A stretch of 64,000 nucleotides of DNA from a virus, in the IMG/VR virus record IMGVR_UViG_3300012971_000890; one strand, written 5' to 3'. Positions 783 through 20,200 of this stretch are shown piece after piece. A program made the translations under genes and the position numbers. Position 1 is the first letter of the stretch; each line of letters begins with the position of its first letter. A model generated the notes under the pieces. The model did not search any database and was not told the origin of the DNA. It was given only the letters and a program-made list of their open reading frames with translations.

Positions 783-1646
783 ATGTCAGACTACAAGCAG
801 CTAGATGAATATATTGAAAACCTGGAAAAGCTCCTCGTTTTTCTGCGCGACTATCGAAAGCGTCAATTCGAGGACAGCCAGACAGGCGACTACCTGCGCG
901 AATTTCATCATCTGAAAGAACTCCTCCGTAGTAGCGCGTGGCCACCCGCAATCCTTCCCGAATTCATGTGCCGCCCCGACTCCGAAACGGACAAGCACGA
1001 GCGGGCCATGACCATCCTGGCAGGTCTGGTGCCCCTCGCGCAACTGAGTTTCCTCGACTACGGGTGCGGGGAAGGGCACGTCGCCTGGGAAGCCTCGCAC
1101 GCTGCCAAAAAGGTCGTAGGATTTGACATCGAAGAGCAATCCTGGGGCCACTTGGTCAAAGATAATCTGTACTTCACCACTAATTTCAACGATGTGAGGC
1201 AGCACGGCCCCTACGACATAATCCTGTTATATGACGTGCTGGACCACTGCGATGACCCTGTGGCGACTCTGAAGCAAGTCAAGGAAGTGCGTCGAGGAAA
1301 CGGTCCCATTTATGCCCACTGCCATCCCTGGGCCAGCCGCCACGCCACACATTTATATCACACCGTCAACAAGGCGTTTCTGCACCTTGTATTCAGCGAC
1401 AAGGAACTCCTCAAACTAGGGTTCAAAGGAATCAAGACCGCCAAACTGCTCAACAGCATGGAAACCTACCGCAAGTGGTTCAAGGACGCTGGCCTCCAGG
1501 TCAAAATGGAAGTCCCCCACCGAAAGACCATCGAAGACTTTTTCTTTCACGATCCCCTCATCAGCCGGCGACTCAAAGCCCACTGGCCGGGCAACCTGCC
1601 CCACAACGAAGTGAACCTGGAGTCGGTGGATTATATCGTCGCCTAA
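783..1646 (+). CDS. class I SAM-dependent methyltransferase
   Basis: Motif I LDYGCGEGH, VVGFDIEE, DIILLYDVLDH; 287 aa. Confidence 0.7.
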   Translation: MSDYKQLDEYIENLEKLLVFLRDYRKRQFEDSQTGDYLREFHHLKELLRSSAWPPAILPEFMCRPDSETDKHERAMTILAGLVPLAQLSFLDYGCGEGHVAWEASHAAKKVVGFDIEEQSWGHLVKDNLYFTTNFNDVRQHGPYDIILLYDVLDHCDDPVATLKQVKEVRRGNGPIYAHCHPWASRHATHLYHTVNKAFLHLVFSDKELLKLGFKGIKTAKLLNSMETYRKWFKDAGLQVKMEVPHRKTIEDFFFHDPLISRRLKAHWPGNLPHNEVNLESVDYIVA

Positions 1647-2300
1647 CTATTTGAAGTCCCCCAGCCCAAGTTTGTGCTTAATCTTGGGCATCGCACGCCA
1701 CAAATCGTAATCGTCGTACTCATCGACCGTGGGCACCCAATCCACCACGTCAACGAAATGGTCATCCGCGTAGGCGGCAATCCTGCGAGCTTCTTCCTTC
1801 GGGGACAGGTTGGGGAACATCAACCCCAGAATGCGCAGCTTGTTGGTTATCTCAATGCTATGGGTGGTCAGGTTGTCCACCAGTACCCAGGGGCAACAAT
1901 CCAGGTTTAGTTCCTTGGCGACCTGGCCCGGCTCTGTCTGGCCCGTGCTGAAGACACCCTGGATGTACGGCTCCCAATTCAAGCCCCGAATAACCTTTAG
2001 GGCGTAATCCTTGTCGCTGTGCGTGAGAATATACAGGTCAGCGAAGTCGGTTACGGCCTTGACGAACTTGGAGGAGCCGGGCCGAGGGAAGATGTACATA
2101 TCCTTGCCCTCCGCGTGGATTTGAAAAACGTCGGGGTAAGGGCTTTCACCCGGCACCACCAACTTGGCATACTGGCTGTTACCCGGCGAGTCCTTCAGCC
2201 AGCCGATCTCCATATTATGGACCAGAGTTTCGTCCATATCGCAGAAGACAAACCGCTTCGTACTTTCCAGTACCTCAAGCCACAACTTAAAGTCGCTCAT
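1647..2300 (-). CDS. FCP1/NIF-like HAD-family phosphatase
   Basis: FVFCDMDETLVHN (DxDxT) plus RPG...ILTHSDKDYA and VLVDN blocks typical of the NIF/CTD-phosphatase fold; start taken at the internal MSDFK. Confidence 0.6.
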   Translation of the reverse strand: MSDFKLWLEVLESTKRFVFCDMDETLVHNMEIGWLKDSPGNSQYAKLVVPGESPYPDVFQIHAEGKDMYIFPRPGSSKFVKAVTDFADLYILTHSDKDYALKVIRGLNWEPYIQGVFSTGQTEPGQVAKELNLDCCPWVLVDNLTTHSIEITNKLRILGLMFPNLSPKEEARRIAAYADDHFVDVVDWVPTVDEYDDYDLWRAMPKIKHKLGLGDFK

Positions 2301-2308
2301 TGATATAT

Positions 2309-2884
2309 TTAGGCCGTATCGTTCAATCCTTCGTGGGCAAATGCCACCCACTCCTCTACCGAACCAAGGTGGGCCTGAAGCATCTTCAGATACTTCACCG
2401 CCTGGTTGAACTGGCGCTTGCCCACCGAGATCGCCGCCAGCACCGCCCACTGCTGCGCCCGGTTATAAGTCGGCAACTTCTCGAACTCGGCGGCGTAGGC
2501 ATCCAACGCCGCGTAAACCTTCTGCCGCAACTGGTCCACCGGCACCTTGGTGTACTTGGCGTTATTCTGCAAATTGACCTCGAACTCACGGCGGAAGGAA
2601 TCTGTAGCATCGCCCAGGTCAAGGAGGTAACCCTTAGTGAGCCACTGGAGGGTCTTCTGAACCTTTTCCTTGACGTAGGGGTAACCGGCGTAGTTGAAGG
2701 TGGGCCGCTCGCTCATGCGATGGACGAGATCACCGACGTGTTCCACAACCGGGTTGAGGATGCCGCCGCCCAATGCAAACTGGACGCGCAACATGGCATG
2801 TTCCGGGCGGTCACGTTGCATGTCCGCCAGGTCAAAGAAATCCTCTTTGGTGGCTTCGTTTAGCATATCATAAATATGGGGCAC
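2309..2884 (-). CDS. hypothetical protein
   Basis: 191-aa ORF; diverges from tmk. Confidence 0.45.
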   Translation of the reverse strand: MPHIYDMLNEATKEDFFDLADMQRDRPEHAMLRVQFALGGGILNPVVEHVGDLVHRMSERPTFNYAGYPYVKEKVQKTLQWLTKGYLLDLGDATDSFRREFEVNLQNNAKYTKVPVDQLRQKVYAALDAYAAEFEKLPTYNRAQQWAVLAAISVGKRQFNQAVKYLKMLQAHLGSVEEWVAFAHEGLNDTA

Positions 2885-3664
2885 ACCCTAAATAACAACA
2901 TGGCAGACGGATTTTCAGAGTTCTTCCAAGAACACTGGCTGGTGGAGCATGAAGACGTAAAGCTCCAGGTGCGGGACATCCTCAAGCAGACCAAGCCGAA
3001 GACGAAACGGGGCCTGCTCATTGTGTTTGAAGGCATCGACGGAGCCGGCAAATCCACCCAGGTCGATCTCCTCAAAAAGTGGCTGGAGAAGGAGCAGAAT
3101 TATGCCGTGACCTATACCAAGTGGAATTCGGCCAAACCCATCAAGCCCATCACCAGCAAGCTCAAGGATAAGCGGGAACTCAGTCCCGTTCTGTACAGCC
3201 TGATGCACGCCGCCGACATGGTTCACCGCTACGAAAATACTATCCTTCCAGCACTGTCGGCCAACAAGATCATAATTTGTGACCGCTACCTCTACACCAG
3301 CATCGTCCGCGACAAGGCCCGTGGCGTGGACGTGGAGTGGCTGAACAAGGTCTACAAGGACATGCGCGAGCCGGACATTCTTTTCCACTGCGCCGTGCCC
3401 ATCCACGTCGCTTTCGGGCGGCTCGTCAAGGAGAAGGGCCTGACCTACTACGGCACCGGCAGCGATCTGAACTTGGCAGACAGCCGCGAGGAGAACTACA
3501 TCAAGTACGAAAACATCCTCGACAAACTCTATCGCAAAGTTCTGCCAGAAGTGAAGTCCTACCATAAGCTGGATATGCGCAAAAGCATCCCGGAAATTCA
3601 AGACGACATCCAAGACATTGTGAAGAAAAAGACCGGAATCGGCAAGTACGCGAAGGAGGAATAG
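2876..3664 (+). CDS. tmk: thymidylate kinase
   Basis: P-loop IVFEGIDGAGKST; DRY-like CDRYLYTS; 262 aa. Confidence 0.85.
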   Translation: MGHTLNNNMADGFSEFFQEHWLVEHEDVKLQVRDILKQTKPKTKRGLLIVFEGIDGAGKSTQVDLLKKWLEKEQNYAVTYTKWNSAKPIKPITSKLKDKRELSPVLYSLMHAADMVHRYENTILPALSANKIIICDRYLYTSIVRDKARGVDVEWLNKVYKDMREPDILFHCAVPIHVAFGRLVKEKGLTYYGTGSDLNLADSREENYIKYENILDKLYRKVLPEVKSYHKLDMRKSIPEIQDDIQDIVKKKTGIGKYAKEE

Positions 3665-3885
3665 TGCAGGACTTCTATCAGTACATGGCCGGACAACATC
3701 GAGGGATGCTGCAATGGATTGGCAGGGAACTGAACGACCTCCTAACCTCCTCGGACACCCGTTACCAGTTCAATATGGACACAATAGATCGACTCAACCG
3801 CATCGTAAATACAATCCGCTCAGCCCTGAGCAGTGGCGGCGGTGGCGAACCCCCACCCAAAGGCGGGCACGCGGGCATGACCTGA
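3664..3885 (+). CDS. small hypothetical protein (GTG start)
   Basis: 73-aa ORF directly after the tmk stop; weak support. Confidence 0.2.
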   Translation: MQDFYQYMAGQHRGMLQWIGRELNDLLTSSDTRYQFNMDTIDRLNRIVNTIRSALSSGGGGEPPPKGGHAGMT

Positions 3886-3912
3886 GCGGGCGGCGAGTGC
3901 TGACCCGTGCGG

Positions 3913-4437
3913 TCAGGACAAACGACTGGCAACTTGATCCTTGTCGGACAAAATATAATCACCATCCCTAGTCTTCGGCCACTCAATGTTCAACGTCGGG
4001 TCGGCGTAATACACGCTCTCCTCCAGGCTGGGTTCGTAGCACCCACCCTGGGCATAAATTAGGATGGTGTTGTCGGTGGCCGCAAAGAACCCGTGGCCGC
4101 AGTGGGGCGGGACGAATAACTGTCGTGGGGCTTCTGGGTTCAGCCAGACCCCGAACCACTTCTTGTAGGTAGGTGAGGTCTTGCGCAAGTCAACCACCAC
4201 GTCCCATAGCTCACCGGAAACGCAGGTGCAGACCTTGAAGAAGGGAACCTTGTGAATCCCGCGAATGACGTTCCGGTGCGAGTAGGACCAGTTGACCTGG
4301 GTGGCGGGCACGAAGATGGGGGTGACCTCGCCAGAGCGGTTGAAGTTGTAGATTTCTTGGAAAAAGCCCCGGTGATCGTCGTAGCGATCCGGCTCGACAA
4401 GGTAGGCGTCCTTCACGGGCGTTTCGATGAGTTTCAT
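3913..4437 (-). CDS. rmlC: dTDP-4-dehydrorhamnose 3,5-epimerase-like cupin (RmlC family)
   Basis: DDHRGFFQE, IRGIH, GELWDVVVDLRKTSPTY, PPHCGHGF, YADPTLNIEWP all match RmlC blocks. Confidence 0.8.
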   Translation of the reverse strand: MKLIETPVKDAYLVEPDRYDDHRGFFQEIYNFNRSGEVTPIFVPATQVNWSYSHRNVIRGIHKVPFFKVCTCVSGELWDVVVDLRKTSPTYKKWFGVWLNPEAPRQLFVPPHCGHGFFAATDNTILIYAQGGCYEPSLEESVYYADPTLNIEWPKTRDGDYILSDKDQVASRLS

Positions 4438-4447
4438 TAGACTCCTG

Positions 4448-4458
4448 CATATATAAGG
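4448..4458 (+). promoter_or_regulatory. CATATATAAGG promoter-like motif
   Basis: TATATAA core about 35 nt upstream of the 4491 ATG; AGGAGG RBS follows. Confidence 0.35.
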
Positions 4459-4490
4459 CAGCCATCCCTAATAGAGTAGGAGGTTCAATT

Positions 4491-4685
4491 ATGGCATGGA
4501 TTATTGTTATAGGAATTCTCGTCGTTGGCATCATTCTGTTCGCCATTTTCACATTGCCGAAGCCAGAACCATGCTGCGACTGCAAGGAAAAATGCGGGGA
4601 AGACTGCCCGTGCGCCGGCGAGTGTGGGACTCAGTGCGTCCTTTGCTTCCCACCGCAGCCACCAGCTTACCCACCGATTCGTTAA
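4491..4685 (+). CDS. small membrane-anchored cysteine-rich protein
   Basis: N-terminal TM helix then CCDCKEKCGEDCPCAGECGTQCVLC; strong RBS. Confidence 0.45.
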   Translation: MAWIIVIGILVVGIILFAIFTLPKPEPCCDCKEKCGEDCPCAGECGTQCVLCFPPQPPAYPPIR

Positions 4686-4698
4686 GCAGGAGGGTTAA

Positions 4699-5277
4699 TT
4701 GATTACGAGTTGGACCGTCAAGCCGGCGTTTCAAGAGCAAAGCACGACCTATTACCAGGCCACGGCGATGGGCGACCCGCACATCGCCGGCTTTGACGGG
4801 GAGGTTTTCGACTTCCACGGAAAGGCCGGCTGCTGCTATTGCTTTTACGCCGACGACGATCTCATAGTCAATGCCAAACTGGCGAAAGCACCGCCCCCAC
4901 ACCTGCCCGACGCAACGATTATTGCCGAAGTCTTCGTCATGCACGGCGACGACACCGCCCATTATAACATGAACGGTAACGGGCACCCCGCGAGCGTGCG
5001 GGTGTTTGGCCCGAACAGAGTGATGGTCGTGCGGGCATGGTCCAAAGACAACCGCCAGGTCACCCACGGCATCCGGCGGGCCGGGGCGTGGGTGGCTCAG
5101 CAGCGACCCAGGGTTTTTGAAAACCTCGACCTGAGCCTGGAGGTCCAGCCCGCCGGGGAACCCACCGGAGTAATCGGCCAAACACTGCTCCCCCCAGAAA
5201 GGCGTCGTCGCAACGAAGACTTCGAGGTTTCCGATCTGTCTGCCCTGATTGAGAGGAACCCCGATGAGCGTTTATAA
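4699..5277 (+). CDS. hypothetical protein (TTG start)
   Basis: 192-aa ORF; AGGAGGG RBS 5 nt upstream. Confidence 0.45.
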   Translation: MITSWTVKPAFQEQSTTYYQATAMGDPHIAGFDGEVFDFHGKAGCCYCFYADDDLIVNAKLAKAPPPHLPDATIIAEVFVMHGDDTAHYNMNGNGHPASVRVFGPNRVMVVRAWSKDNRQVTHGIRRAGAWVAQQRPRVFENLDLSLEVQPAGEPTGVIGQTLLPPERRRRNEDFEVSDLSALIERNPDERL

Positions 5278-5923
5278 ACCCGGCGATGCCGTCCACGGCG
5301 AGTTCGTCACCAACAGTTTGGCCACCGGGGCAGCTACCGATGCCGACTTTGCCCCGGTCGGCACGCTCACGCGAAATGGCACAGACGATGGCGCGGTCAC
5401 CGTGCAGGTGCTACACCAGGACACAGGACGATACCATTTCTTCTTCACCATTCCCGCGACTTACGCCGCAGGCGACTCGGTGGTAATCACCATCAATGCC
5501 ACGCTCAACGCAATTCTCGCCAAGGCGGTCGTCTGGTCCGAACAACTGCGGGCGCACAACACCGATGACCTCTACGCCCTCCTGGCGGCTATGAACCCGC
5601 CTCCGAACTGGTCCGCCCTCAATATCGACCTGTCCGGGCGCATGGCCATTCAAAGCCGCATTACCAAGAACACGGCGCTCAGCAATTTCTTGTTCTTAAT
5701 GAACGACGGAACGGGCAATGCTCTACCGGGCCTCAATGTAACTGCCACCCGCACCATCGACGGCTCGGCGCTCGCTGCGTGTGCCAATACGGTCACCGAG
5801 GTCGGCAGTGGCTACTACAAGATCAACCTAGCGGCCAGCGACCTAAACGGCAACTGCATCGGGTTGAAGTTCAGCGCCGCCGGGGCCAAGGACAGCGATA
5901 TTACGATAGTGACAGTGCCGTAA
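5264..5923 (+). CDS. hypothetical virion-associated protein (distantly related to 12829-13290)
   Basis: GAGG RBS; Thr/Ala/Gly-rich beta-type composition; shares a TVxVxHxDTGxY..FTIxAT-like pattern with the 12829 gene. Confidence 0.45.
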   Translation: MSVYKPGDAVHGEFVTNSLATGAATDADFAPVGTLTRNGTDDGAVTVQVLHQDTGRYHFFFTIPATYAAGDSVVITINATLNAILAKAVVWSEQLRAHNTDDLYALLAAMNPPPNWSALNIDLSGRMAIQSRITKNTALSNFLFLMNDGTGNALPGLNVTATRTIDGSALAACANTVTEVGSGYYKINLAASDLNGNCIGLKFSAAGAKDSDITIVTVP

Positions 5924-5932
5924 GGGAGGAAC

Positions 5933-6982
5933 ATGAGTTTACGAATGATCGACGGGTTCGACCACTATAACTGGTCGCAGATGATGCGAAAGTGGAGTAC
6001 CTATGTCACGGGCTACATCGGCAACCCCGTGATCGGCCCTGGCAACGGTCGCTTCGGGGGCGGGGCGATGTACAATGGCGCGGCGGGTGGCCAGTACGCG
6101 CAACAATCGGTCTTTAAGACGTTAGACCCCCAATCCACCTGGATTTTAGGCGTGGCCTTTAAGTGGACCGGCGGCAACGTCTCCGCGTCCACAGTCCTCC
6201 TGGGCGTGTACGATGTTAACAGCAAGCAGGTCGATGCCCGCCTAAACTCCGACAATACGATGTCAGTCACCAGAGCAGGAACGGTCTTGGGGACAACCAG
6301 CTTCGTCATGAGTTCGGGCGCGTGGTACTATATCGAACTGAAAACGACCATCCACCCCACCGCCGGCAGCTTCGACCTGCATATCAACGGCGTATCACGC
6401 ACATCTGCCACCAACGTCAACACTCGCAACACGGCCAACAATACAGCGAACCAAGTCAGCATCGGCTTCCCGGACCAGACCAACACCGGCAGCATCACGA
6501 CGCTTGCCTTCGATGATTTTTATGCCTGCGACGGCAACGGCACCGTCAACAACAACTTCCTGGGCGATGTGAGAGTCGAGACACTTTATCCCAACGCGGT
6601 CGGCGCTACCACGCAGTTCACACCTACCAGTGGCACCAACTTCGGGTGCGTCAATGAAAATCCCATGAATGACGACGCGAGCTACGTTTACGGCAACACG
6701 GTGGGGAATATTGACACTTATAAGATCAGCGCGCTGTCCAGCATACCGCAAACCATCATGGGCACGCAGATTAACTCCACCGCCAGGAAGGACTCGTCGG
6801 GAAACCGGGCGATGGAGTTGGTAGTCCGATCTGGGGCTGCCAACTACCTCGGTTCTGACAACTACACAAATGCAACCTACGCGACGTACAACCGCATTGA
6901 CGAGACGGACCCGGCCACCAGCGCCCCTTGGACATCCCCTGGTATTGCCGCCGTCGAGATCGGACACAAACTAAGCATCTGA
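5933..6982 (+). CDS. structural paralog 1 of a 4-member tandem family (tail/fibre-associated candidate)
   Basis: MSLRMIDGFDHY N-terminus; conserved TRNTAN, NNFLGD, ARKD, RIDETDP..APWT blocks shared with the 6992, 8478 and 9528 genes. Confidence 0.65.
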   Translation: MSLRMIDGFDHYNWSQMMRKWSTYVTGYIGNPVIGPGNGRFGGGAMYNGAAGGQYAQQSVFKTLDPQSTWILGVAFKWTGGNVSASTVLLGVYDVNSKQVDARLNSDNTMSVTRAGTVLGTTSFVMSSGAWYYIELKTTIHPTAGSFDLHINGVSRTSATNVNTRNTANNTANQVSIGFPDQTNTGSITTLAFDDFYACDGNGTVNNNFLGDVRVETLYPNAVGATTQFTPTSGTNFGCVNENPMNDDASYVYGNTVGNIDTYKISALSSIPQTIMGTQINSTARKDSSGNRAMELVVRSGAANYLGSDNYTNATYATYNRIDETDPATSAPWTSPGIAAVEIGHKLSI

Positions 6983-6991
6983 GAGGAAAAC

Positions 6992-8005
6992 ATGCTGCGA
7001 TTTATGGATGGTTTCGATCACGTCGCTCTGGCAAACGTTGCCCAAAAATGGACCAATGCCAACTTGACACAGGTGTTCCTGCAAACCCCAGGACGGTTTG
7101 GCGGCTCGTACCTCCACTTCCACCAGGGCAACTCGTATGTGGGGAAGACCCTCGACAACCAAGCATCATGGGTGGTGGGCTTTGCTCTGCGCGTCGGAGT
7201 CGGTTATTCCGTTATCACCCCCTTATTCCAACTATTGGACGCCGGCACCATCCAGGTTGAGTTGTGGATTAAGAATGATAACACCCTGTTTGTTGCCCGC
7301 AACGGCACGGCGGTCACTGGCAGCAACTTTGCGTTTACCCCCGGCATCTGGCATTACGTCGAATACAAAGTCACCATCAGCGCCAGCATCCCTGCGAACT
7401 CATGGAAGGTCCGGGTGGATGGGCAGGACGTAATAAACGTACCAGCCGGCCAATCGTCCAAGAACACGGCGAACAGCACTGCCAATCAGATTAAATTTGG
7501 TCCCATAAACCAGAACGACGACCCCGATTACGACGACATATACATCTGCGACAGTCAAGGCACTACCAACAACGATTTCCTGGGCGATACAAAAGTCGTA
7601 ACGATGTTTCCCACATCGGCGGGCACCACAACCCAATGGACCCCACTTTCGGGTGCCAATTATACCAATGTAAACCAGACCCAACCCGACGACGATGCTT
7701 CTTACGTCTATACCTCCACGCCTGGGCAGACCGACACCTACCTTTGTGGGGACATTACCGATAACCCGGTCAACATCTTCGGAGTACAGACCAACCTTTA
7801 TGCCCGCAAAGACGACGCCGGAGTGAGAACCGTATCCAAGGTAATACGTTCGGGCGGGACAAATTACCCAGGGGCGGCGGTGGACAACTTGGCAGCCAAT
7901 TACGTCTTTTACACCGAAATAGATGAAAAAGACCCAGGCACCGGAGCCGCGTGGACAAAGGCTGGTTTCAATGCCGCAGAGTTCGGAGCAACCATCATCG
8001 CGTAA
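6992..8005 (+). CDS. structural paralog 2
   Basis: MLRFMDGFDHV; same conserved blocks (NDFLGD, YARKDD, EIDEKDPGTGAAWT). Confidence 0.65.
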   Translation: MLRFMDGFDHVALANVAQKWTNANLTQVFLQTPGRFGGSYLHFHQGNSYVGKTLDNQASWVVGFALRVGVGYSVITPLFQLLDAGTIQVELWIKNDNTLFVARNGTAVTGSNFAFTPGIWHYVEYKVTISASIPANSWKVRVDGQDVINVPAGQSSKNTANSTANQIKFGPINQNDDPDYDDIYICDSQGTTNNDFLGDTKVVTMFPTSAGTTTQWTPLSGANYTNVNQTQPDDDASYVYTSTPGQTDTYLCGDITDNPVNIFGVQTNLYARKDDAGVRTVSKVIRSGGTNYPGAAVDNLAANYVFYTEIDEKDPGTGAAWTKAGFNAAEFGATIIA

Positions 8006-8014
8006 AGGAGGGTA

Positions 8015-8449
8015 ATGGCTGTATTCACCAAGTTCTATCAATTCGTCCAAGACGTTGCCAATAAGGTCCACAACCTGGGCACCGATAACTTGAAAATGAT
8101 GTTGACCAACACCGCCCCGGTGTTAACTAATAAAGTCAATGGGGATTTGACCGAGATCACGGCGCAGGGTGGTTACACCGCCGGGGGCGCAACGGTAACC
8201 ATCTCCTCCAGTATCCAAAGCACCGGCATTTATCGACTCATTCCGTCCGCCGACGTTGTATGGAACGGGACGGGGAGCGGTTTCGGACCCTTCCGGTACA
8301 TCGTCCTATACAACAGCGTTGCCGGACCTGATGCCACCCACCGCCCGCTCGTCGCCGTATGGGACTTCGGCAGCAACGTCACCATCAATAGCGGCGATAC
8401 CTTCACTGTCAGCCTCGATAAAGTAAACGGCATCATTACGCTGCAATAA
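8015..8449 (+). CDS. hypothetical structural protein
   Basis: 144-aa ORF embedded in the paralog array; RBS GGAGGG. Confidence 0.5.
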   Translation: MAVFTKFYQFVQDVANKVHNLGTDNLKMMLTNTAPVLTNKVNGDLTEITAQGGYTAGGATVTISSSIQSTGIYRLIPSADVVWNGTGSGFGPFRYIVLYNSVAGPDATHRPLVAVWDFGSNVTINSGDTFTVSLDKVNGIITLQ

Positions 8450-8450
8450 A

Positions 8451-8462
8451 GCTATATAACAG
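8451..8462 (+). promoter_or_regulatory. GCTATATAACAG promoter-like motif
   Basis: Identical 12-mer recurs at about 15493; sits 16 nt upstream of the GTG start at 8478. Confidence 0.45.
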
Positions 8463-8477
8463 CGAAGGAGGTACATC

Positions 8478-9518
8478 GTGGCGCTCAGATTCGTTGACGG
8501 ATTCGATCATTACACAACGCCGACTCAAGCACTCAGAAAGTGGACGGCCAATTACACTAGCTACCCTGGAACCTTTGGCGGCACAAGCACTGGTCGTTTT
8601 AGTGGCGGTTCCTACCATATAAATAACTGCTATTCCGGCAACCCCCTTATAAAGACCCTCGACGCCCAGCCAACCTGGATACTAGGCACGGCCCACAAAT
8701 TCAACATGATAACCACGGGCGTTCAAGTATTCGCCGTGCTGGACGGGAACACGTTACAAATGGATGTTCGGCAGAATGCCGATGGCACGATGAGCGTCAC
8801 TCGTAACGGCACGGTCCTGGGCACAACCCCGTCTGCCGTGGGCCTCGCCAACCAGTGGAATTACTACGAGTTCAAGACCACCATTCACCCCACGGCGGGC
8901 GCTTATGAACTACGAGTCAACGGTCAAAGCCTGCTTTCTGCCACCAACGTCAATACCAGGAACACGGCCAACAGTTCCGCCAACCAGATACAGTGCGCCA
9001 GTTGGGCCACCAGTTACAACGGCGGTAGCGGCGTCTACGATTTCGATGACTTCTATGCCTGCGATGGAACGGGAACAAATAACAACGATTTTCTGGGGGA
9101 AATGAGAATTGAAACCCTGTATCCGAACTCACCGGGGACCAACACAAACTTCACCCCAAACCCCGCCGGGGCTAATTACGCCAACGTCAAGGAAACCCCT
9201 CCCGACGATGACGCCTCGGTGGTCATGGGCGGCACCTTCGGTTTGATGGATACCTACCTCATGAGCCATTTGAGTGGCACACCCACCAGCATCAAAGGCA
9301 CGATGCTCACCATCATGGCTCGAAAGGACAACGCGGGCACCAGAGCGGTGTCCCCTGTGATTCGCTCAGGAGGCAATAACAACACCGGGGCCACCATGTA
9401 CCTGGGGGCGTCCTATGTGTGCTATATGCGAATTGACGAAACGGACCCAGGGACCGGGGCAGCGTGGACGGCGGCAGGGGTAAACGCGGTAGAGTGCGGG
9501 CAAAGTGTAACCATATGA
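8478..9518 (+). CDS. structural paralog 3 (GTG start)
   Basis: MALRFVDGFDHY; blocks TRNTAN, NNDFLGE, ARKDNAGTR, RIDETDPGTGAAWT. Confidence 0.65.
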   Translation: MALRFVDGFDHYTTPTQALRKWTANYTSYPGTFGGTSTGRFSGGSYHINNCYSGNPLIKTLDAQPTWILGTAHKFNMITTGVQVFAVLDGNTLQMDVRQNADGTMSVTRNGTVLGTTPSAVGLANQWNYYEFKTTIHPTAGAYELRVNGQSLLSATNVNTRNTANSSANQIQCASWATSYNGGSGVYDFDDFYACDGTGTNNNDFLGEMRIETLYPNSPGTNTNFTPNPAGANYANVKETPPDDDASVVMGGTFGLMDTYLMSHLSGTPTSIKGTMLTIMARKDNAGTRAVSPVIRSGGNNNTGATMYLGASYVCYMRIDETDPGTGAAWTAAGVNAVECGQSVTI

Positions 9519-9527
9519 AGGAGGAAC

Positions 9528-10550
9528 GTGTCGCTGAGGTTTGTGGACAGTTTCGACCATTACGCCACCGCCAACGGCGCGCAAAAATGGACCAGCGTGG
9601 ACCATTTCACGATTGTGTCACCTGGCAGGTTCGGCACCGGCCAGTGTATGCAACTGTCTATGAACTGGCCGAACGTAACGAAAACGCTGGACGCCCAGCC
9701 AACCTGGATCATCGGCTTTGCCATAAAACTTAGTGCCTGGGTCAATGGGCCGACGCTACTAATCGTCCTCCAAGACGGCGCAAACTATCAGGCCGACCTC
9801 CGACTCAACCCCGATGGCACACTGTTCGTAACCCGAAACGGGACGGCTGTTACCGGAGGGACCAGTACCCGCTCTTTGCGTCTAAACACTTGGTACTACG
9901 TCGAGATGAAATGCACCATAGCGACGAGCATCCCGGCTAATTCCTGGCAGGTGCGAGTCAACGGTACGCAAGTCATCAGCGTGACGGCGGGCCAGAGTTC
10001 CCAGGTTACAGCCAACGCTACCGCCAACACGGTGAGGATCGGCGGGAACATGGGTACTTCCGCCTTCAACGCCTGGTTTGACGACCTTTATATGTGCGAC
10101 GGGCAAGGCAGCGCCAATAACGATTTTCTGGGCGACCTCAAGATCGTAGCCGTCTTGCCCAACGCCGCCGGCACCCTGACGCAGTGGGGTTCCCTGAGCG
10201 GACCCAACTACACCAACGTTAACCAACAGACGCCCGACGACGACACGTCCTACGTTGTCAGTTCCACGCCAGGTCAGATCGACACCTACCTTACCCCCGG
10301 CATCAGTGAAACACCCACGAATATTATTGGCGTACAGGCGGGCCTATACGCCCGCAAGGACGACGCTGCCACCCGAACGTTGACCAAGGTAATAAGGTCT
10401 GGCGGGGTTGCCTACACCGGCCTCAACCTTGCTATGACCACCACTTACGCTTATTACCTGGACATCAACGAGACGGACCCTGCCACCGGGTCGGCATGGA
10501 CCAAGGCGGGCGTCAACGCGGCTGAAATTGGAGTGCAGGAGATTGCATAA
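9528..10550 (+). CDS. structural paralog 4 (GTG start)
   Basis: MSLRFVDSFDHY; blocks NNDFLGD, YARKDDAATR, INETDPATGSAWTKAGVNAAE. Confidence 0.65.
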   Translation: MSLRFVDSFDHYATANGAQKWTSVDHFTIVSPGRFGTGQCMQLSMNWPNVTKTLDAQPTWIIGFAIKLSAWVNGPTLLIVLQDGANYQADLRLNPDGTLFVTRNGTAVTGGTSTRSLRLNTWYYVEMKCTIATSIPANSWQVRVNGTQVISVTAGQSSQVTANATANTVRIGGNMGTSAFNAWFDDLYMCDGQGSANNDFLGDLKIVAVLPNAAGTLTQWGSLSGPNYTNVNQQTPDDDTSYVVSSTPGQIDTYLTPGISETPTNIIGVQAGLYARKDDAATRTLTKVIRSGGVAYTGLNLAMTTTYAYYLDINETDPATGSAWTKAGVNAAEIGVQEIA

Positions 10551-12829
10551 TGGCCAACCGCGTATCCCAGGAAGTTATCGAAGTCGTCTACCAAGTGAAC
10601 CCCAACGCCCTGGTTACGCAGGATGTGGTGGAGGTCGCAGACGCTTATGCCAGCAACGCCCTGGTCACCCAGGACGTGCTGGAAGTCGTAGACGCTCCGA
10701 CCAGTAATCTGGTGGTTACCCAGGACGTGCTGGAGGTCTTGGACTCCACGCCCAGCAGCCTCCGTGCCACCCAAGTCACCCTTGAAGTTCTGCGCACCGT
10801 CACAGGCACGACGCCTCAGAACTACTTCGTTCCGGCCCAGCGCGGGCAGTTCATGGTAACCATGATGGGGGCGTCCGCTCCTCCATCCAATTATTCCCAG
10901 GTAATCGAGCAGGAAACGGGGCTAGTTTCATACTGGCAACTTAATGAAACCTCCGGCACGACCGCCACCGACAGCCAGGATGCCAACAACGGGGCATTTA
11001 CGGGCGGTTATACCCTCAACCCGGCCCCTCCCGGCACCCAAGTGCAAGGGGCCGTCACCCTGGACGGTAGCACGAACTACCTGTCGGTCAACCGAAATAT
11101 CCAAGACGACTTTACCATCGAATTCTGGTTCAAGACCACCGGGAGTGCGCCGGCAGGGAGCAACTATTACAATGGGTGGGGCCTGGTTAATGCTGAAGTT
11201 AGCGGCGTTACCAACGACTTCGGCACGAGTCTAGTAAACGGTGGACAAGTCGCCGCCGGCACAGGCAATCCCGACACCACCATCCGCAGCGTTGCCACCA
11301 ACCTCAATGACGGCAACTGGCACTACGTCGCCTTTACGCGAGTGCGATCAACGGGCGTAATCAATCTGTATGTCGATTCGGCGGCAGCAGTAACCGCACT
11401 CGGCAACTCCGGTGGCCTTACCGCCCCTGCCGCCATCAACTTTGGTCGAATCCTGTCTGGTGGTGGTTTCTTCCCTGGATCGCTGTCCAACGTGGCCTTC
11501 TATAACGTCGCCCTGTCCTCGGCCCAGGTGACAGCGCACTTCAACGCGGCGACAGGTGGTTCGCCTTACAGTGGCGTCATACTGGCGACAATGGGCATCG
11601 TATCCCTGTGGCAACTGCACGACCCCTACCTGGGCAGAGGGGCTTTCGACAGCAAGGGCGGTAATCCCGGTTACTTCTTTGGCTACAACTACCTTCTGGA
11701 CTCCGGCCCCGGCTCACTGATGTCCGGCTCGACGTTATTTAACGGGAGCAACGGATACATCCAAGTGCCCAACTCGGCCAACCTGTCGATCACAGGAAAT
11801 ATTACGGTTGAAGCCTGGTTCATGCTCAACACCGTGCAATCGGGCACCTGGAACAAAATCGTTGAGAAAGGTTTCTCATCTGGTTCGTCGCCGTATATCA
11901 ACTACTGCCTGGGAACCAACACCGGCAATCCATCGGCTTCTTCCGGCAATTATGTCGGCAACGGCAACGGCACCCTGGAGTGGTCACTGGCGCTCGGCGG
12001 TGTGCTTTATGAGTGCTTCAGCAAAACCATCCCGACCGCCGGCCAGTGGTACTACGTTGTGGGCACCTACGACGGTGCCAACCTGCGAATCTATGTGAAC
12101 GGCGTTCTGGAAAACACCCTGGCAGCAACCGGGGCAATCACCAATAGCGGCCAGCCGTTCATGATCGCCGCTCACAACCGGGGCGGCAGTCTGGGTGAAT
12201 ATTTCCCAGGCGAACTGTCCAACGTCGCCGTGTACAATGTTGCCCTCACCCAGACCCAAATCACCACCCACTACGCCAGCGCCGGCAACCCCAACGCCCG
12301 GCTTTCGCAGGAAGCGGTGGATACGCTATACACCGACGTAGCCAATGCGCGACTGTCGCAGGAAACGGCAGAGGTACTGTACGGGGACAATGCCAATTTA
12401 CTGGTCACCCAGGAAGCCCTGGAAGTGGCCCACATTGCAGCCAATACCAACCTTCTGGTCACCCAGGAAGCCCTGGAAGTGGCCCACATTGCCAGCGACA
12501 CAAACCTCCTCGTAACGCAGGAAGCCCTGGAGGTTTTGCGCAGTAGCGCGAACGCGACAAACGCAAGGTTGACGGCTTTATCAACGTGCGTGGGCACCAG
12601 CACGGTTACGCACATGCCCCAGGCAGCGATTACCGCCAGGGCCAGCATCGTCGCGCGGGCCGCAGCCGCACGCCCCGGTGTCGCCGCCCTCGCCGCCAAG
12701 ACATCCCTCGCCATTACAGGCAATGTCCTGCACAGCATTTTCCTCGGCGTAAATCGGGGCCGGATCATAAATATGGGTGGGGTTGGGGCGGGAAGACGGT
12801 CCAGCCTGGTCAATTGCGGAGGAGTTTAA
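10550..12829 (+). CDS. tail-fibre-like protein with two LamG/concanavalin-like domains and terminal 17-aa repeat arrays
   Basis: DFTIEFWFKT..WHYVAFTR..LYVD and VEAWFML..WYYVVGTYDG..IYVNG (LamG signatures); N-terminal (NALVTQDVLEV)x4 and C-terminal (N..LVTQEALEV)x5 repeats. Confidence 0.7.
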   Translation: MANRVSQEVIEVVYQVNPNALVTQDVVEVADAYASNALVTQDVLEVVDAPTSNLVVTQDVLEVLDSTPSSLRATQVTLEVLRTVTGTTPQNYFVPAQRGQFMVTMMGASAPPSNYSQVIEQETGLVSYWQLNETSGTTATDSQDANNGAFTGGYTLNPAPPGTQVQGAVTLDGSTNYLSVNRNIQDDFTIEFWFKTTGSAPAGSNYYNGWGLVNAEVSGVTNDFGTSLVNGGQVAAGTGNPDTTIRSVATNLNDGNWHYVAFTRVRSTGVINLYVDSAAAVTALGNSGGLTAPAAINFGRILSGGGFFPGSLSNVAFYNVALSSAQVTAHFNAATGGSPYSGVILATMGIVSLWQLHDPYLGRGAFDSKGGNPGYFFGYNYLLDSGPGSLMSGSTLFNGSNGYIQVPNSANLSITGNITVEAWFMLNTVQSGTWNKIVEKGFSSGSSPYINYCLGTNTGNPSASSGNYVGNGNGTLEWSLALGGVLYECFSKTIPTAGQWYYVVGTYDGANLRIYVNGVLENTLAATGAITNSGQPFMIAAHNRGGSLGEYFPGELSNVAVYNVALTQTQITTHYASAGNPNARLSQEAVDTLYTDVANARLSQETAEVLYGDNANLLVTQEALEVAHIAANTNLLVTQEALEVAHIASDTNLLVTQEALEVLRSSANATNARLTALSTCVGTSTVTHMPQAAITARASIVARAAAARPGVAALAAKTSLAITGNVLHSIFLGVNRGRIINMGGVGAGRRSSLVNCGGV
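10603..10800 (+). repeat. about 51-nt coding tandem repeats (x4) at the 5' end of the fibre gene
   Basis: Repeated ctggt(c/t)ac(c/g)caggacgtgctggaagtc units. Confidence 0.6.
12292..12550 (+). repeat. about 51-60-nt coding tandem repeats (x5) at the 3' end of the fibre gene
   Basis: Repeated ctggtcacccaggaagccctggaagtggcccacattgc units. Confidence 0.6.
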
Positions 12830-13290
12830 TGCGGGTAGTGAAGCAAGGCACAGCCAGGAACGTCATGGTCTTCATGACCCAAAGTGCCGACCATATTTCA
12901 GGCGCACCTGGCCTGACCCTGACCATCACCGCGAGTAAAGACGGCAGTGCCTTCGCATCCGTCACACCCACAGTCACAGATCGAGCCGCCGGTTGGTACT
13001 CCCTAGCCCTCACCGCCAGCCACACCGATACCCTGGGAGATTTCGCGTTGCATATCACCGGGACTGGCGCTGACCCCGCCGATTTGCTGATGCAAGTGGT
13101 CGCTTACGATTTCGCTGATGTGGTACGGCTGGGCCTCACGGCCTTGCCGAATGTCGCCCAGGGGACCGCAGGGGCGGTGCTAACGTCCGGCGCAGGCACC
13201 GGCCAACTAAATGTCGCCAGTGGTGTGGCCGACGCCAAAATAAAAACCATCAACACCGCCCTCTACGGCCCCCTGATCGGCTCTTCCTAA
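12829..13290 (+). CDS. hypothetical virion-associated protein
   Basis: ATG overlaps the fibre gene stop; composition similar to 5264-5923. Confidence 0.5.
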   Translation: MRVVKQGTARNVMVFMTQSADHISGAPGLTLTITASKDGSAFASVTPTVTDRAAGWYSLALTASHTDTLGDFALHITGTGADPADLLMQVVAYDFADVVRLGLTALPNVAQGTAGAVLTSGAGTGQLNVASGVADAKIKTINTALYGPLIGSS

Positions 13291-14186
13291 GTTTGCGCCT
13301 TGCGGATGATCTCCGCAATATCCGCCACGGCCTGCTTGTACTTGTCCGGCGTCTCGATGCACTTGGACAGGCTGCCGTAATGCTCCTCCAAGCACTCCAG
13401 CAACAGCTTCTTGATCGCCGGCTCGTCCGGCCCCCACGGCAGGGCGGACTCCTCGTACAGCTTCTCCAGTTCCTTCTCCTTGGTGGCGAAGTAGTCCCGA
13501 ATCTGCTGCTCGGTCCACTCGCCCCGGCGGATCGACTTCAACTGCTCCCGGTTGCGCTGGAGATCGAGGTCACCCTCGGCCATAATCATCTCAACTTCGT
13601 TGAGGAGGCGCACGACATGATATGCGAACTTCAAATCATAGCCGTGTTCCTCGATCATGGCCTGGCGTTTGCTTGACTCGCGCTCCTTCTTGCCCATCTT
13701 GTTGACCTGCTGATAGGCGTAGCCCTTGAAGGTATGCCAGCACTTCTTGTGCAGGAATATCTTGCGCTTCTCGCGGACCATCGTGCCCACGCGGGTAATA
13801 TGCAGCACGCAATTATCCGGCGTGAACAGGGAGTCAATCATGTTGGGATTATTTTGCATCACCAACTGAAAGTAGTCCACGATGTTATAGCAACACAGGT
13901 CATACTCCCGGCCCTTGCCACCCATCGCGTCGGTGTCGTTCAGGTGGTGTTCCTGATATTGAGCGAAGCGGTGCTTCTGGGTGCCGAACCCGATGATCTC
14001 GCCGCGCAGATGCGGGAAAATTTCCTCCTTGGGCGGGATGCACCAGGAGTAGATGTCCATGTCGGACGTGTCGCTGGACACGCCGTAGGCCACGCTGCCC
14101 ATCAGCGATTCGTAGTGAATGTTGTTGGGCAGCCAGGGCGGCGGGTGCGCAATCTTCTTCTCGGCCAGTTCCCGAATGTAGCTCAT
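13287..14186 (-). CDS. Pol-beta superfamily nucleotidyltransferase (RlaP/Nuc-transf-like or CD-NTase-like)
   Basis: GSVAYGVSSDTSDMDIY (GS...SDxD NTase motif); later acidic EYDLCCYNIVD; 299 aa. Confidence 0.55.
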   Translation of the reverse strand: MSYIRELAEKKIAHPPPWLPNNIHYESLMGSVAYGVSSDTSDMDIYSWCIPPKEEIFPHLRGEIIGFGTQKHRFAQYQEHHLNDTDAMGGKGREYDLCCYNIVDYFQLVMQNNPNMIDSLFTPDNCVLHITRVGTMVREKRKIFLHKKCWHTFKGYAYQQVNKMGKKERESSKRQAMIEEHGYDLKFAYHVVRLLNEVEMIMAEGDLDLQRNREQLKSIRRGEWTEQQIRDYFATKEKELEKLYEESALPWGPDEPAIKKLLLECLEEHYGSLSKCIETPDKYKQAVADIAEIIRKAQT

Positions 14187-19419: not shown

Positions 19420-20200
19420 TCAATCTTCGTCCTTTTCCACGGACTGGAACAGGATGTCGAACTTGCCCCGCATCACCCCCTGGATGTCGCGGGTCTTCAC
19501 CCCCAGCCGGTGGTCGGACACGCGGCTCAGGATGAAGTTGTAAGTTCTTATTTTCCCACCGCGCCCGCCGCTCCCCAGGGCGTCCTTGCGGGCCGAGGCG
19601 TAGGCGGCGTTGGCGGCATTGCGCCGTTTTTCGCGCCACCGGGCGTTGACGATCTTGATGGCCTCCTCCTTGTTCTTGCCCTGGTCGCGCCCGTTGATAA
19701 AGACCCGGATCGCCGGGTCTTTTTTATAGACGCACCGAATGGCTGAGGCCACTTTGTTTACGTTCTGCCCACCGGCATTCTGCTTCCCCGTCTGGGCAGT
19801 GATCTCCAAGTCAGAGAGCGGGATCACGTCCTTGGGATCGGCTGGGGGCAAGGGCAGGACGGCCACCGAGATCATGCTGGTCTGGCGGCGTCCCTTGGTT
19901 TCGGTGGGCGGGACACGCTGGACGCAGTGGCCCCCGGTTTCGTGCTGGAACGCCTGGAAGACGCCCCGGCCCCGGAACTGGATGATGATGTGGCCGTTTT
20001 CAGAAGTGAGGGTTTCGTGCTTGAAGCCCTTGGAATCCGCGTATTTGCGGTAGGCTTCCGCCAAGGATTCGACAAACAGTTTGCTGTCGTCGCCACCCTC
20101 ACCGAACTGAAGTTCAACGATCAGTTCGGTGGCGCGCTCAAAGGGAGTCCAGGGGCTTGTTTTGGCCGACCCACTCCTGGTGGATGTGACGCTTGAATTT
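19420..20200 (-). CDS. class I peptide-chain release factor homolog lacking domain 1 (RF1-type PxT; PrfH-like); N-terminus uncertain
   Basis: GGQ (AGGQNVNK), PPT motif (VQRVPPTETKGRRQTS), RTYNF..VSDHR blocks; homology (ELQFGEGGDD) extends upstream of the TTG ORF start toward an ATG ORF ending CTT TGA. Confidence 0.6.

Follow-up and report, generated by a model that had tools for sequence, protein, structure and literature searches.

A tandem phrog_2448 gene array linked to an enlarged LamG repeat protein in a viral sequence: a candidate accessory adhesin cassette

Gene organization of the cassette

The DNA analysed here, referred to below as the window, is a 64,000-nucleotide stretch of the IMG/VR virus record IMGVR_UViG_3300012971_000890, in which an initial annotation made from the letters alone had drawn attention to four consecutive paralogous genes followed by a gene for a 759-amino acid (aa) protein with LamG domains. 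The four open reading frames (ORFs), whose products are designated P1 to P4, were confirmed at 5933-6982, 6992-8005, 8478-9518 and 9528-10550, all on the plus strand. They lie in a plus-strand block (4491-13290) with products, in order, of 64, 192 and 219 aa, P1, P2, 144 aa, P3, P4, 759 aa and 153 aa, and opposite-strand genes for a dTDP-sugar epimerase and an RlaP nucleotidyltransferase are found on the two sides of the block. The initial annotation named the paralogs and the LamG gene but not the 144-aa ORF (orf144) or the ORFs for 64, 192, 219 and 153 aa. Since the same gene order was present in independent assemblies, namely a 76.6-kb ENA contig, two Logan runs and, for part of the region only, a diverged JGI contig, the array is not an assembly artefact. 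The features of the cassette are as follows, with AlphaFold2 abbreviated as AF2.

5933..6982, plus strand: paralog 1 (P1), type A, 349 aa; phrog_2448, E=3.4e-40, full length
6992..8005, plus strand: paralog 2 (P2), type B, 337 aa; phrog_2448, E=1e-45
8015..8449, plus strand: orf144, 144 aa, between P2 and P3; phrog_644, E=1.6e-14
8478..9518, plus strand: paralog 3 (P3), type A, 346 aa, GTG start; phrog_2448, E=1.3e-43
9528..10550, plus strand: paralog 4 (P4), type B, 340 aa, GTG start; AF2 model with a jelly roll at ~1-195 and a C-terminal beta domain at ~210-340
10550..12829, plus strand: TQ-repeat/LamG protein, 759 aa; Laminin_G_3, E=5.7e-39; phrog_13560 matches on both repeat arrays
10556..10798, plus strand: N-terminal array of five 17-aa RVSQ/LVTQ-xxx-EV repeats, residues 3-83; 51-nt DNA units 65-80% identical
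10883..11554, plus strand: LamG jelly roll 1, about residues 112-335; Laminin_G_2 and Laminin_G_3; confident AF2 segment
11582..12289, plus strand: LamG jelly roll 2, about residues 345-580; Laminin_G_3 at residues 398-571; confident AF2 segment
12296..12544, plus strand: C-terminal array of five 17-18-aa repeats (two ARLSQE, three LLVTQEALEV), residues 583-665; Tandem Repeats Finder unit of 54 nt, 2.4 copies, 88% matches

The paralogs are members of phrog_2448

The four paralogs could be aligned over their entire length with an alignment identity of 41-54% (for P1 versus P2, 38% by BLASTP, E=2e-69), and the motifs quoted for them initially are present with minor variation, as LRF/M-x-D-G/S-FDH, TAN..TAN, NN(D/N)FLG(D/E), ARKD(D/S/N) and I(D/N)E(T/K)DP...(A/P)WT. 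All four are full-length members of phrog_2448 (E 3e-40 to 7e-47, profile positions ~1-335 of 335), a catalogued family to which no function has been assigned. An exhaustive profile search retrieved 27,242 cluster representatives (50% identity) at E<=1e-3, with 20,684 of them reaching E<=1e-10; the 150 best-scoring were nearly all 325-360 aa long, and tblastn detected homologs of the paralogs in 211 phage records. Scanning of the paralogs and of 65 family members against Pfam revealed no family covering the whole protein, and nothing meaningful was obtained from PDB sequence searches with a profile of the four paralogs, a 65-member profile, two Chi-like homologs and orf144.

The 759-aa protein and the repeat family phrog_13560

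The start codon of the 759-aa gene overlaps the stop codon of P4. From the N-terminus, its product consists of five repeats, two LamG domains, five further repeats, an Ala/Arg-rich linker and a short hydrophobic C-terminal end; the match to Laminin_G_3 (PF13385) scored 134.1 bits, versus a cut-off of 27.6, over two stretches. The two LamG domains, the repeats at both ends and the count of five C-terminal units agree with the initial annotation, which had counted four N-terminal repeats where five are present. The whole protein matched phrog_13560 with E=9.7e-13 and the separate arrays with 9.5e-8 and 1.7e-7.

Members of phrog_13560, which is likewise catalogued without an assigned function, follow a canonical design (28 proteins) comprising an MA-x-RVTQ N-terminus, three 17-aa repeats of the unit RVTQxxxEVL, a short linker and a hydrophobic C-terminal stretch such as QQPLVIIIAG or RRLIFMLGA. 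The 759-aa protein starts with MANRVSQ and ends with RRSSLVNCGGV, which fits these canonical ends, and the best interpretation is that a canonical repeat protein gave rise to it through expansion of the array to ten units and insertion of two LamG domains. The Ala/Arg-rich C-terminus was examined for a frameshift or read-through, which was rejected: no continuation of the repeats is present in the overlapping frame, and the tail is kept in an ortholog of 77% identity, so it is a genuine coding sequence. The same ortholog has an identical layout of repeats and LamG domains.

Designation of this gene as tail-fibre-like was found to be a poor fit. Among fibre families, only a weak match to phrog_24534 ('tail fiber protein', E=1.4e-5) was obtained, over the LamG region; no fibre family was matched in Pfam, and the AF2 model contains no extended shaft, so that the shaft and fibre-family features of classical trimeric tail fibres are lacking. 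The protein is an elaborated member of the small repeat-protein family rather than a recognisable fibre.

The repeat protein accompanies the family gene in many phages

A hidden Markov model (HMM) of the repeat unit was used for a six-frame scan of 731 kb, comprising the window and 42 loci, which are denoted by L numbers where they have to be told apart. All 28 ORFs with at least two repeat units were located within 157 nt of a phrog_2448 gene and none was found elsewhere in the 731 kb; divergent repeats were recognised in the adjacent ORF of most of the scan-negative loci (L015, L022, L031, L035, L009, L034 and L037). When the repeat profile was run on a collection of 5.8 billion proteins, 68 proteins were recovered, nearly all of them stand-alone products of 51-140 aa (mode ~68-70) and none with a functional name. 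Four of the 68 were traced to contigs, each beside one or two family genes (L044 shares its sample with L018 and is not independent).

The arrangement occurs in cultured phages as well. Gp098 of Caulobacter phage CcrSwift (69 aa, three repeats) is encoded directly upstream of the family gene gp099, and in Brevundimonas phage Delta the genes DELTA_31/32 are followed by DELTA_33, a Gly-rich 'minor tail protein' with five variant repeats at its C-terminus, the counterparts of which in related phages are annotated as 'lectin-like domain protein'. In an uncultured phage of 595 kb, a divergently transcribed ORF with four repeats adjoins two family genes in tandem. Apart from DELTA_33, repeats also form part of other larger proteins, including a 740-aa fibre-like protein (L020) and proteins of 280-440 aa in at least eight loci. 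In L046, a nanopore sequence, two family genes within 3237-7661 are frameshifted, probably by sequencing errors; next to them come an ORF with six repeats, with RVSH/RVTQ variants, and after it a collagen-repeat protein.

These results show phrog_2448 and phrog_13560 to be a conserved gene pair in many unrelated phages. That the repeats and the paralogs belong together is the main point that the initial annotation had missed, and a non-exhaustive search of the literature found no description of the pairing. The window cassette is an elaborated instance of this catalogued, uncharacterised module and does not constitute a new kind of system.

Repeat number was correlated with family copy number (Spearman 0.46, p=0.02, n=24, not phylogeny-corrected): loci with one copy have a mode of three repeats, those with two copies have 3-9, and the four-copy window has 10. 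The correlation is only suggestive. It was also noticed that a ~185-aa ORF lies shortly downstream of the pair in L017 (12712-13251), L028 (14785-15339) and L029 (2069-2626), with mutual E values of 1e-73 to 1e-93; one more accessory part of the module may be encoded here.

Predicted fold and distribution of variable regions

Structure prediction, proposed in the initial annotation as a check for jelly-roll or fibre folds, gave a jelly roll for the paralogs. The AlphaFold model, with a predicted local distance difference test (pLDDT) value of 95, consists of an N-terminal concanavalin-A-like jelly roll and a C-terminal beta domain of ~130 aa. Fold searches matched the N-terminal jelly roll only. 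For the C-terminal domain there was no Pfam match, and it was not covered by any of the PDB fold matches listed; scanning of isolated C-terminal domains against Pfam gave nothing consistent, and sporadic Cohesin matches in two of the 65 members were not reproduced and were discarded.

Full-length structural relatives in BFVD (template modelling score 0.8-0.9) come from phages of Brevundimonas, Caulobacter, Sphingomonas, Achromobacter, Serratia, Providencia, Vibrio (VpV262) and Roseovarius, and the named ones are listed as uncharacterised except for the virion protein of Achromobacter phage AchV4. Also matched in BFVD were six consecutive accessions, A0A7G8AMI0-AMI5, presumably from one phage, whose products of 425-465 aa are predicted to have the family fold; this run suggests that an even larger paralog array may exist elsewhere.

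Comparison of the four copies revealed that variation is concentrated in five patches of the jelly roll (positions 21-30, 41-50, 71-80, 111-120 and 171-180), in which identity among the four drops to 10-22%. The same patches are the least conserved across the family, and the C-terminal domain is evenly conserved. The jelly-roll core has been replaced in Lu11_0243, AchV4_0026/0027 and DELTA_32, in which the match to the profile is limited to positions ~1-20 and ~180-342. A conserved C-terminal module joined to a variable, swappable lectin-like module is the pattern that would be expected for an anchor and a ligand-binding domain. With a predicted fold of the lectin type, and with most of the differences between the copies lying in patches of this domain, the description of the paralogs as related adhesin modules is plausible.

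Gene position and virion presence in cultured phages

In five cultured phages (Chi-like phage 37, Brevundimonas phage Delta, AchV4, Sphingomonas phage Lucius and CcrSwift) the family gene comes last or nearly last in the tail-gene cluster, behind the genes for the tape-measure and gpJ-like proteins. In CcrSwift it is the last gene before the lysis cassette, and in Lucius the family region forms the N-terminal part of a 527-aa 'putative tail fiber'. The order in L044 is BR0599, a Phage-tail_3/gpJ-like gene, a gene for a 240-aa protein and the family gene. In AchV4, gp0025 and gp0026 were detected by liquid chromatography-tandem mass spectrometry (LC-MS/MS) in CsCl-purified virions, and the authors noted that neither resembles a characterised structural protein (PMC7996906). 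Homology and synteny support the reading of the family protein as a virion protein, probably of the tail tip. The term 'structural gene' used for the paralogs initially is supported in this indirect manner, through the position of relatives at the end of the tail cluster and the detection in AchV4 virions, but not by the immediate surroundings in the window.

The family is present in Chi-like and phiCbK-like phages, which serve as models of flagellotropic infection and for which the cell-surface receptor-binding proteins are still unidentified (PMC9266447). The papers on phage YSD1 that were consulted make no mention of phrog_2448 homologs.

History and stability of the array

Copy number varies from one to four among related phages. 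In the 34 IMG/VR loci, one family gene was present in 28, two in three and three in one, and the four copies of the window are the largest number in these loci and in the cultured phages. A neighbour-joining (NJ) tree had the topology ((P2,P4),(P1,P3)) with 100% bootstrap for each pair and 51% for the monophyly of all four. From the pairs P1/P3 and P2/P4 together with the gene order P1-P2-orf144-P3-P4, we conclude that a two-gene A-B unit was duplicated. The arrays of L026 and of the Chi-like phages arose independently in the same tree.

A relative of the cassette, L041, carries orf145, P3, P4, the LamG gene (747 aa) and orf152 in the same order; its contig opens with a 31-aa fragment of the gene preceding orf145, and the comparison covers orf145 onward. 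Amino acid identity to the window is 76-92%, with a synonymous divergence (dS) of 0.8-1.5 and a ratio of nonsynonymous to synonymous divergence (dN/dS) of 0.04-0.13 (P3, 0.11; the 153-aa ORF, orf153, 0.08), such that all genes compared are under purifying selection. The most conserved gene of the cassette is orf144, with a dN/dS of 0.04. At a dS of about 1, the covered gene order and the 5+5 repeat layout have been kept.

The initial annotation had regarded both the gene array and the repeat arrays as substrates for recombination-driven diversification, which these data do not support. Stretches shared by the paralog DNAs are at most 87 nt long with 64-84% identity (the longest, 87 nt, is 70% identical), and only one pair of 54-nt C-terminal repeat units reaches 87% identity. 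No reverse transcriptase or invertase was found among the window ORFs scanned. Given the low DNA identity of the copies and the conservation in L041, the cassette is old, maintained by selection and today a poor substrate for homologous recombination.

Proposed role of the cassette and alternative explanations

The reading that we favour, at slightly better than even confidence, is that this region represents a widespread two-gene phage module, expanded in a lineage-specific manner and acting as an accessory host-surface adhesin. The first component, the phrog_2448 protein of ~340 aa, would be a virion protein with a variable jelly roll and a conserved C-terminal domain, and would have been expanded when an A-B pair was duplicated to A-B-[orf144]-A-B. 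The second component, a phrog_13560 protein normally of ~70 aa, would have grown to 5+5 repeats and received two LamG domains between the arrays, and may connect the lectin-fold proteins with one another or with the virion in the manner of an adaptor or scaffold. Together they would form a multivalent accessory adhesin, in which up to six lectin-type domains that differ in specificity could bind host-surface glycans during adsorption. The cassette is stably inherited, not rapidly shuffling.

Several points weigh against this proposal. Two of its steps, glycan binding and contact between the repeats and the family protein, are inferred. Incorporation into virions is known for the family only from AchV4 gp0025/gp0026, not from this phage, and no tape-measure, gpJ-like or other recognisable tail gene is adjacent to the cassette in the window. 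The concanavalin-A-like fold is generic and common to enzymes too. The repeat partner is not obligatory, as the Chi-like phages, AchV4 and L026 have family genes with no detectable repeats, and the correlation of repeat with copy number is weak and has counter-examples (L045, two copies and three repeats). Finally, confident AF2 prediction for the 759-aa protein was confined to the two LamG domains, with pLDDT below 50 for both arrays and the tail; such values would fit segments that fold only on binding of a partner.

The distance of the cassette from any recognisable tail gene raises the alternative that the module decorates head fibres, the neck or whiskers, or was redeployed away from the tail in this jumbo phage. 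In line with this, a relative of orf144 in cyanophage Pam1 is found among head, adaptor and needle genes, and a terminase gene follows the module in L045. We nevertheless regard such a location as unlikely, since in all of the cultured siphophages examined the family gene is preceded by those for the gpJ-like or central tail proteins, and the order in L045 would also fit a circularly permuted genome in which a tail module ends at this point. It is rather unlikely that the small TQ-repeat protein assists the assembly of the lectin-fold protein as a chaperone instead of being a structural adaptor. A small ORF adjoining a putative receptor-binding gene does occupy the classical Tfa position, the repeat arrays adopt no confident fold alone, and the repeat protein was absent from the phiCbK virion bands analysed, although a 7-kDa product would probably be missed on a gel; however, the repeats are also fused to large, evidently structural proteins (with two LamG domains in the window, in L020, in DELTA_33 and in the at least eight loci given above), which would be unusual for a chaperone.

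The fold of the paralogs is common to the enzyme families PL7, PL14, PL20 and GH16, and they might accordingly be imagined as virion-borne polysaccharide lyases or glycanases acting as depolymerases, with the four copies covering several capsule or exopolysaccharide (EPS) chemistries. This appears fairly improbable. A match to a well-characterised non-structural enzyme family would, according to the initial annotation, speak against its own reading, and no Pfam lyase or hydrolase was matched in the 65 members scanned; the candidate polar residues were lost once Chi-like and Brevundimonas members were included, leaving only D10, W131, Y133, K286 and P327 nearly invariant; and non-catalytic lectins and carbohydrate-binding modules (CBMs) were matched equally well. 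As for an actively recombining, rapidly varying host-range cassette, tandem paralogs and repeats are recombinogenic in principle, one pair of repeat units is still closely similar and copy number differs between lineages. The short and divergent stretches shared by the paralogs, the age of the duplications (~50% aa identity), the order and layout kept in L041 under purifying selection and the lack of a reverse transcriptase or invertase among the ORFs scanned make it highly improbable.

A more specific form of the adhesin proposal, which we put forward as doubtful, is that the 17-aa RVTQxxxEVL unit is an unrecognised docking motif, with each unit, or each group of about three, recruiting one phrog_2448 protein through its C-terminal domain. 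If so, the pair would represent a general and very widespread plug-in system by which exchangeable receptor-binding modules are mounted on phage particles, the ten-repeat LamG protein would be a viral 'scaffoldin' displaying four lectins in addition to its own two, and a simple rule would be at hand for finding or engineering accessory receptor-binding proteins in many phages. The family phrog_2448 is one of the larger phage families lacking a function. The cassette offers an entry point to this very large 'dark' family, and the question is now testable in view of the consistent repeat partner, the variable lectin-like core and the availability of cultured carriers, namely CcrSwift/phiCbK gp098-099 and Brevundimonas phage Delta 31-33.

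Comparison with known systems

AchV4 gp0025/gp0026, CcrSwift gp099, DELTA_31 and Salmonella phage 37 SP37_52/53 belong to the same family as the window paralogs by full-length HMM match and have the same predicted two-domain fold. In cultured phages the family genes are often in tandem with two or three copies, whereas the window has four arranged as A-B-A-B on a jumbo-phage-like contig that, unlike these relatives, carries them away from recognisable tail genes. CcrSwift gp098, CcrKarma_gp103 and Ccr2_gp098, annotated as 'hypothetical protein', share with the window protein the MA-x-RV[ST]Q start, the 17-aa repeat, the hydrophobic end and a neighbouring family gene. Canonical phrog_13560 proteins have 64-70 aa and three repeats, in contrast to 759 aa and ten repeats in two arrays around two LamG domains, for which the nearest analogues are DELTA_33 (Gly-rich region plus five variant repeats) and P0125 (four LamG domains plus two repeats).

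Lectin-type jelly rolls serve in receptor binding at the siphophage baseplate, as exemplified by BppU/BppL of TP901-1. The lectin-type CBMs and receptor-binding proteins of siphophage baseplates, such as the CBM2 of the evolved Dit of Lactobacillus phage J-1, gp23 of mycobacteriophage Douge and the receptor-binding domain of TM4 gp23, are among the nearest functional analogues but have no sequence relationship to the paralogs, and in these systems there is no counterpart of the paralog C-terminal domain or of the repeat partner. In lambda-type phages, a side tail fibre and its assembly protein (Stf/Tfa) are encoded after gpJ. Gene pairs of this kind are the other nearest functional analogue and are likewise unrelated in sequence. 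The phrog_2448 module resembles that pair in its position after a gpJ-like central tail protein and in having a small ORF beside the binding protein, and differs from it in that the family has neither a fibre shaft nor homology to Tfa and the small ORF encodes a repeat protein often fused to structural domains. An analogy of function only can be drawn with the cellulosomal scaffoldin and its cohesin-dockerin contacts, in that tandem short modules could each recruit one paralogous carbohydrate-active or carbohydrate-binding protein; there is no homology to the window proteins, and recruitment by the repeats is putative. Diversity-generating retroelements (DGRs), shufflons and gene-conversion arrays differ from the window, which has no near-identical DNA repeats and, as stated, neither of the enzymes sought among the ORFs scanned.

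Other genes of the block and its surroundings

The remaining ORFs of the plus-strand block are as follows, with GC3 denoting G+C content at third codon positions.

4491..4685, plus strand: 64-aa ORF opening the gene block; called in the ENA contig gene table; no PHROG match
4699..5277, plus strand: 192-aa ORF; coding-like GC3; no Pfam or PHROG match
5264..5923, plus strand: 219-aa ORF; a domain of ~60-85 aa present twice and found also in the 153-aa ORF
12829..13290, plus strand: 153-aa ORF (orf153); ATG overlapping the LamG stop codon; kept in the relative L041

The domain shared by the 219-aa ORF and orf153 was detected by BLASTP (E=8e-9) and also by phmmer. Neither ORF had a PHROG match, and orf153 had no tblastn match in the phage collection. 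Similarity of the 219-aa ORF to the ~240-aa 'tail fiber' proteins preceding the family genes of AchV4 and Lucius was non-significant (E=2.1 and 0.008), and phmmer gave no support for the ORF downstream of the L029 family gene as a relative of orf153.

A homolog of orf144 also precedes the family gene in L035 (E=1.4e-38), which the NJ tree places beside the window clade. Other relatives of orf144 are Pam1_09 of cyanophage Pam1, which lies between the needle-head and needle genes and is unassigned in the Pam1 annotation, and proteins of EBPR siphovirus 2 and of Gordonia phages, one of the latter annotated as 'minor tail protein'. Scans of the region for sigma-70 promoters and intrinsic terminators gave signals at or below chance, and blastn against 50,697 phage records revealed no close relative of the region.

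The genes neighbouring the cassette (783-4437 and 13287-14186) encode a methyltransferase, an NIF phosphatase, a thymidylate kinase, a dTDP-4-dehydrorhamnose 3,5-epimerase and the RlaP nucleotidyltransferase, and a GT2 glycosyltransferase gene is situated just past the window start. It is conceivable that the sugar-modifying genes are linked to the lectin-like cassette, for example through virion glycosylation.

As a whole, the window looks like part of a jumbo phage, and a protein identical to P4 is encoded on a 151-kb contig. Besides the thymidylate kinase and the dTDP-sugar epimerase, the window encodes PurM-like and aminoacyl-tRNA synthetase-like proteins, an HNH endonuclease and a sigma-like factor. 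Thirteen tRNA genes are located between 26778 and 60650 on the minus strand (Ile-TAT, two Val, three Ala, Gly, Thr, two Arg, Glu and two Gln), scattered among minus-strand genes in a manner typical of jumbo phages. A 969-aa ORF (30536-33445, minus strand) has a strong coding signal with a GC3 of 0.81 and no PHROG match at E<=0.001. For a 214-aa ORF (19420-20064, minus strand), PCRF and RF-1 Pfam domains are listed in the gene table that accompanies the matching ENA contig, and such a release factor-like phage gene could bear on stop-codon usage.

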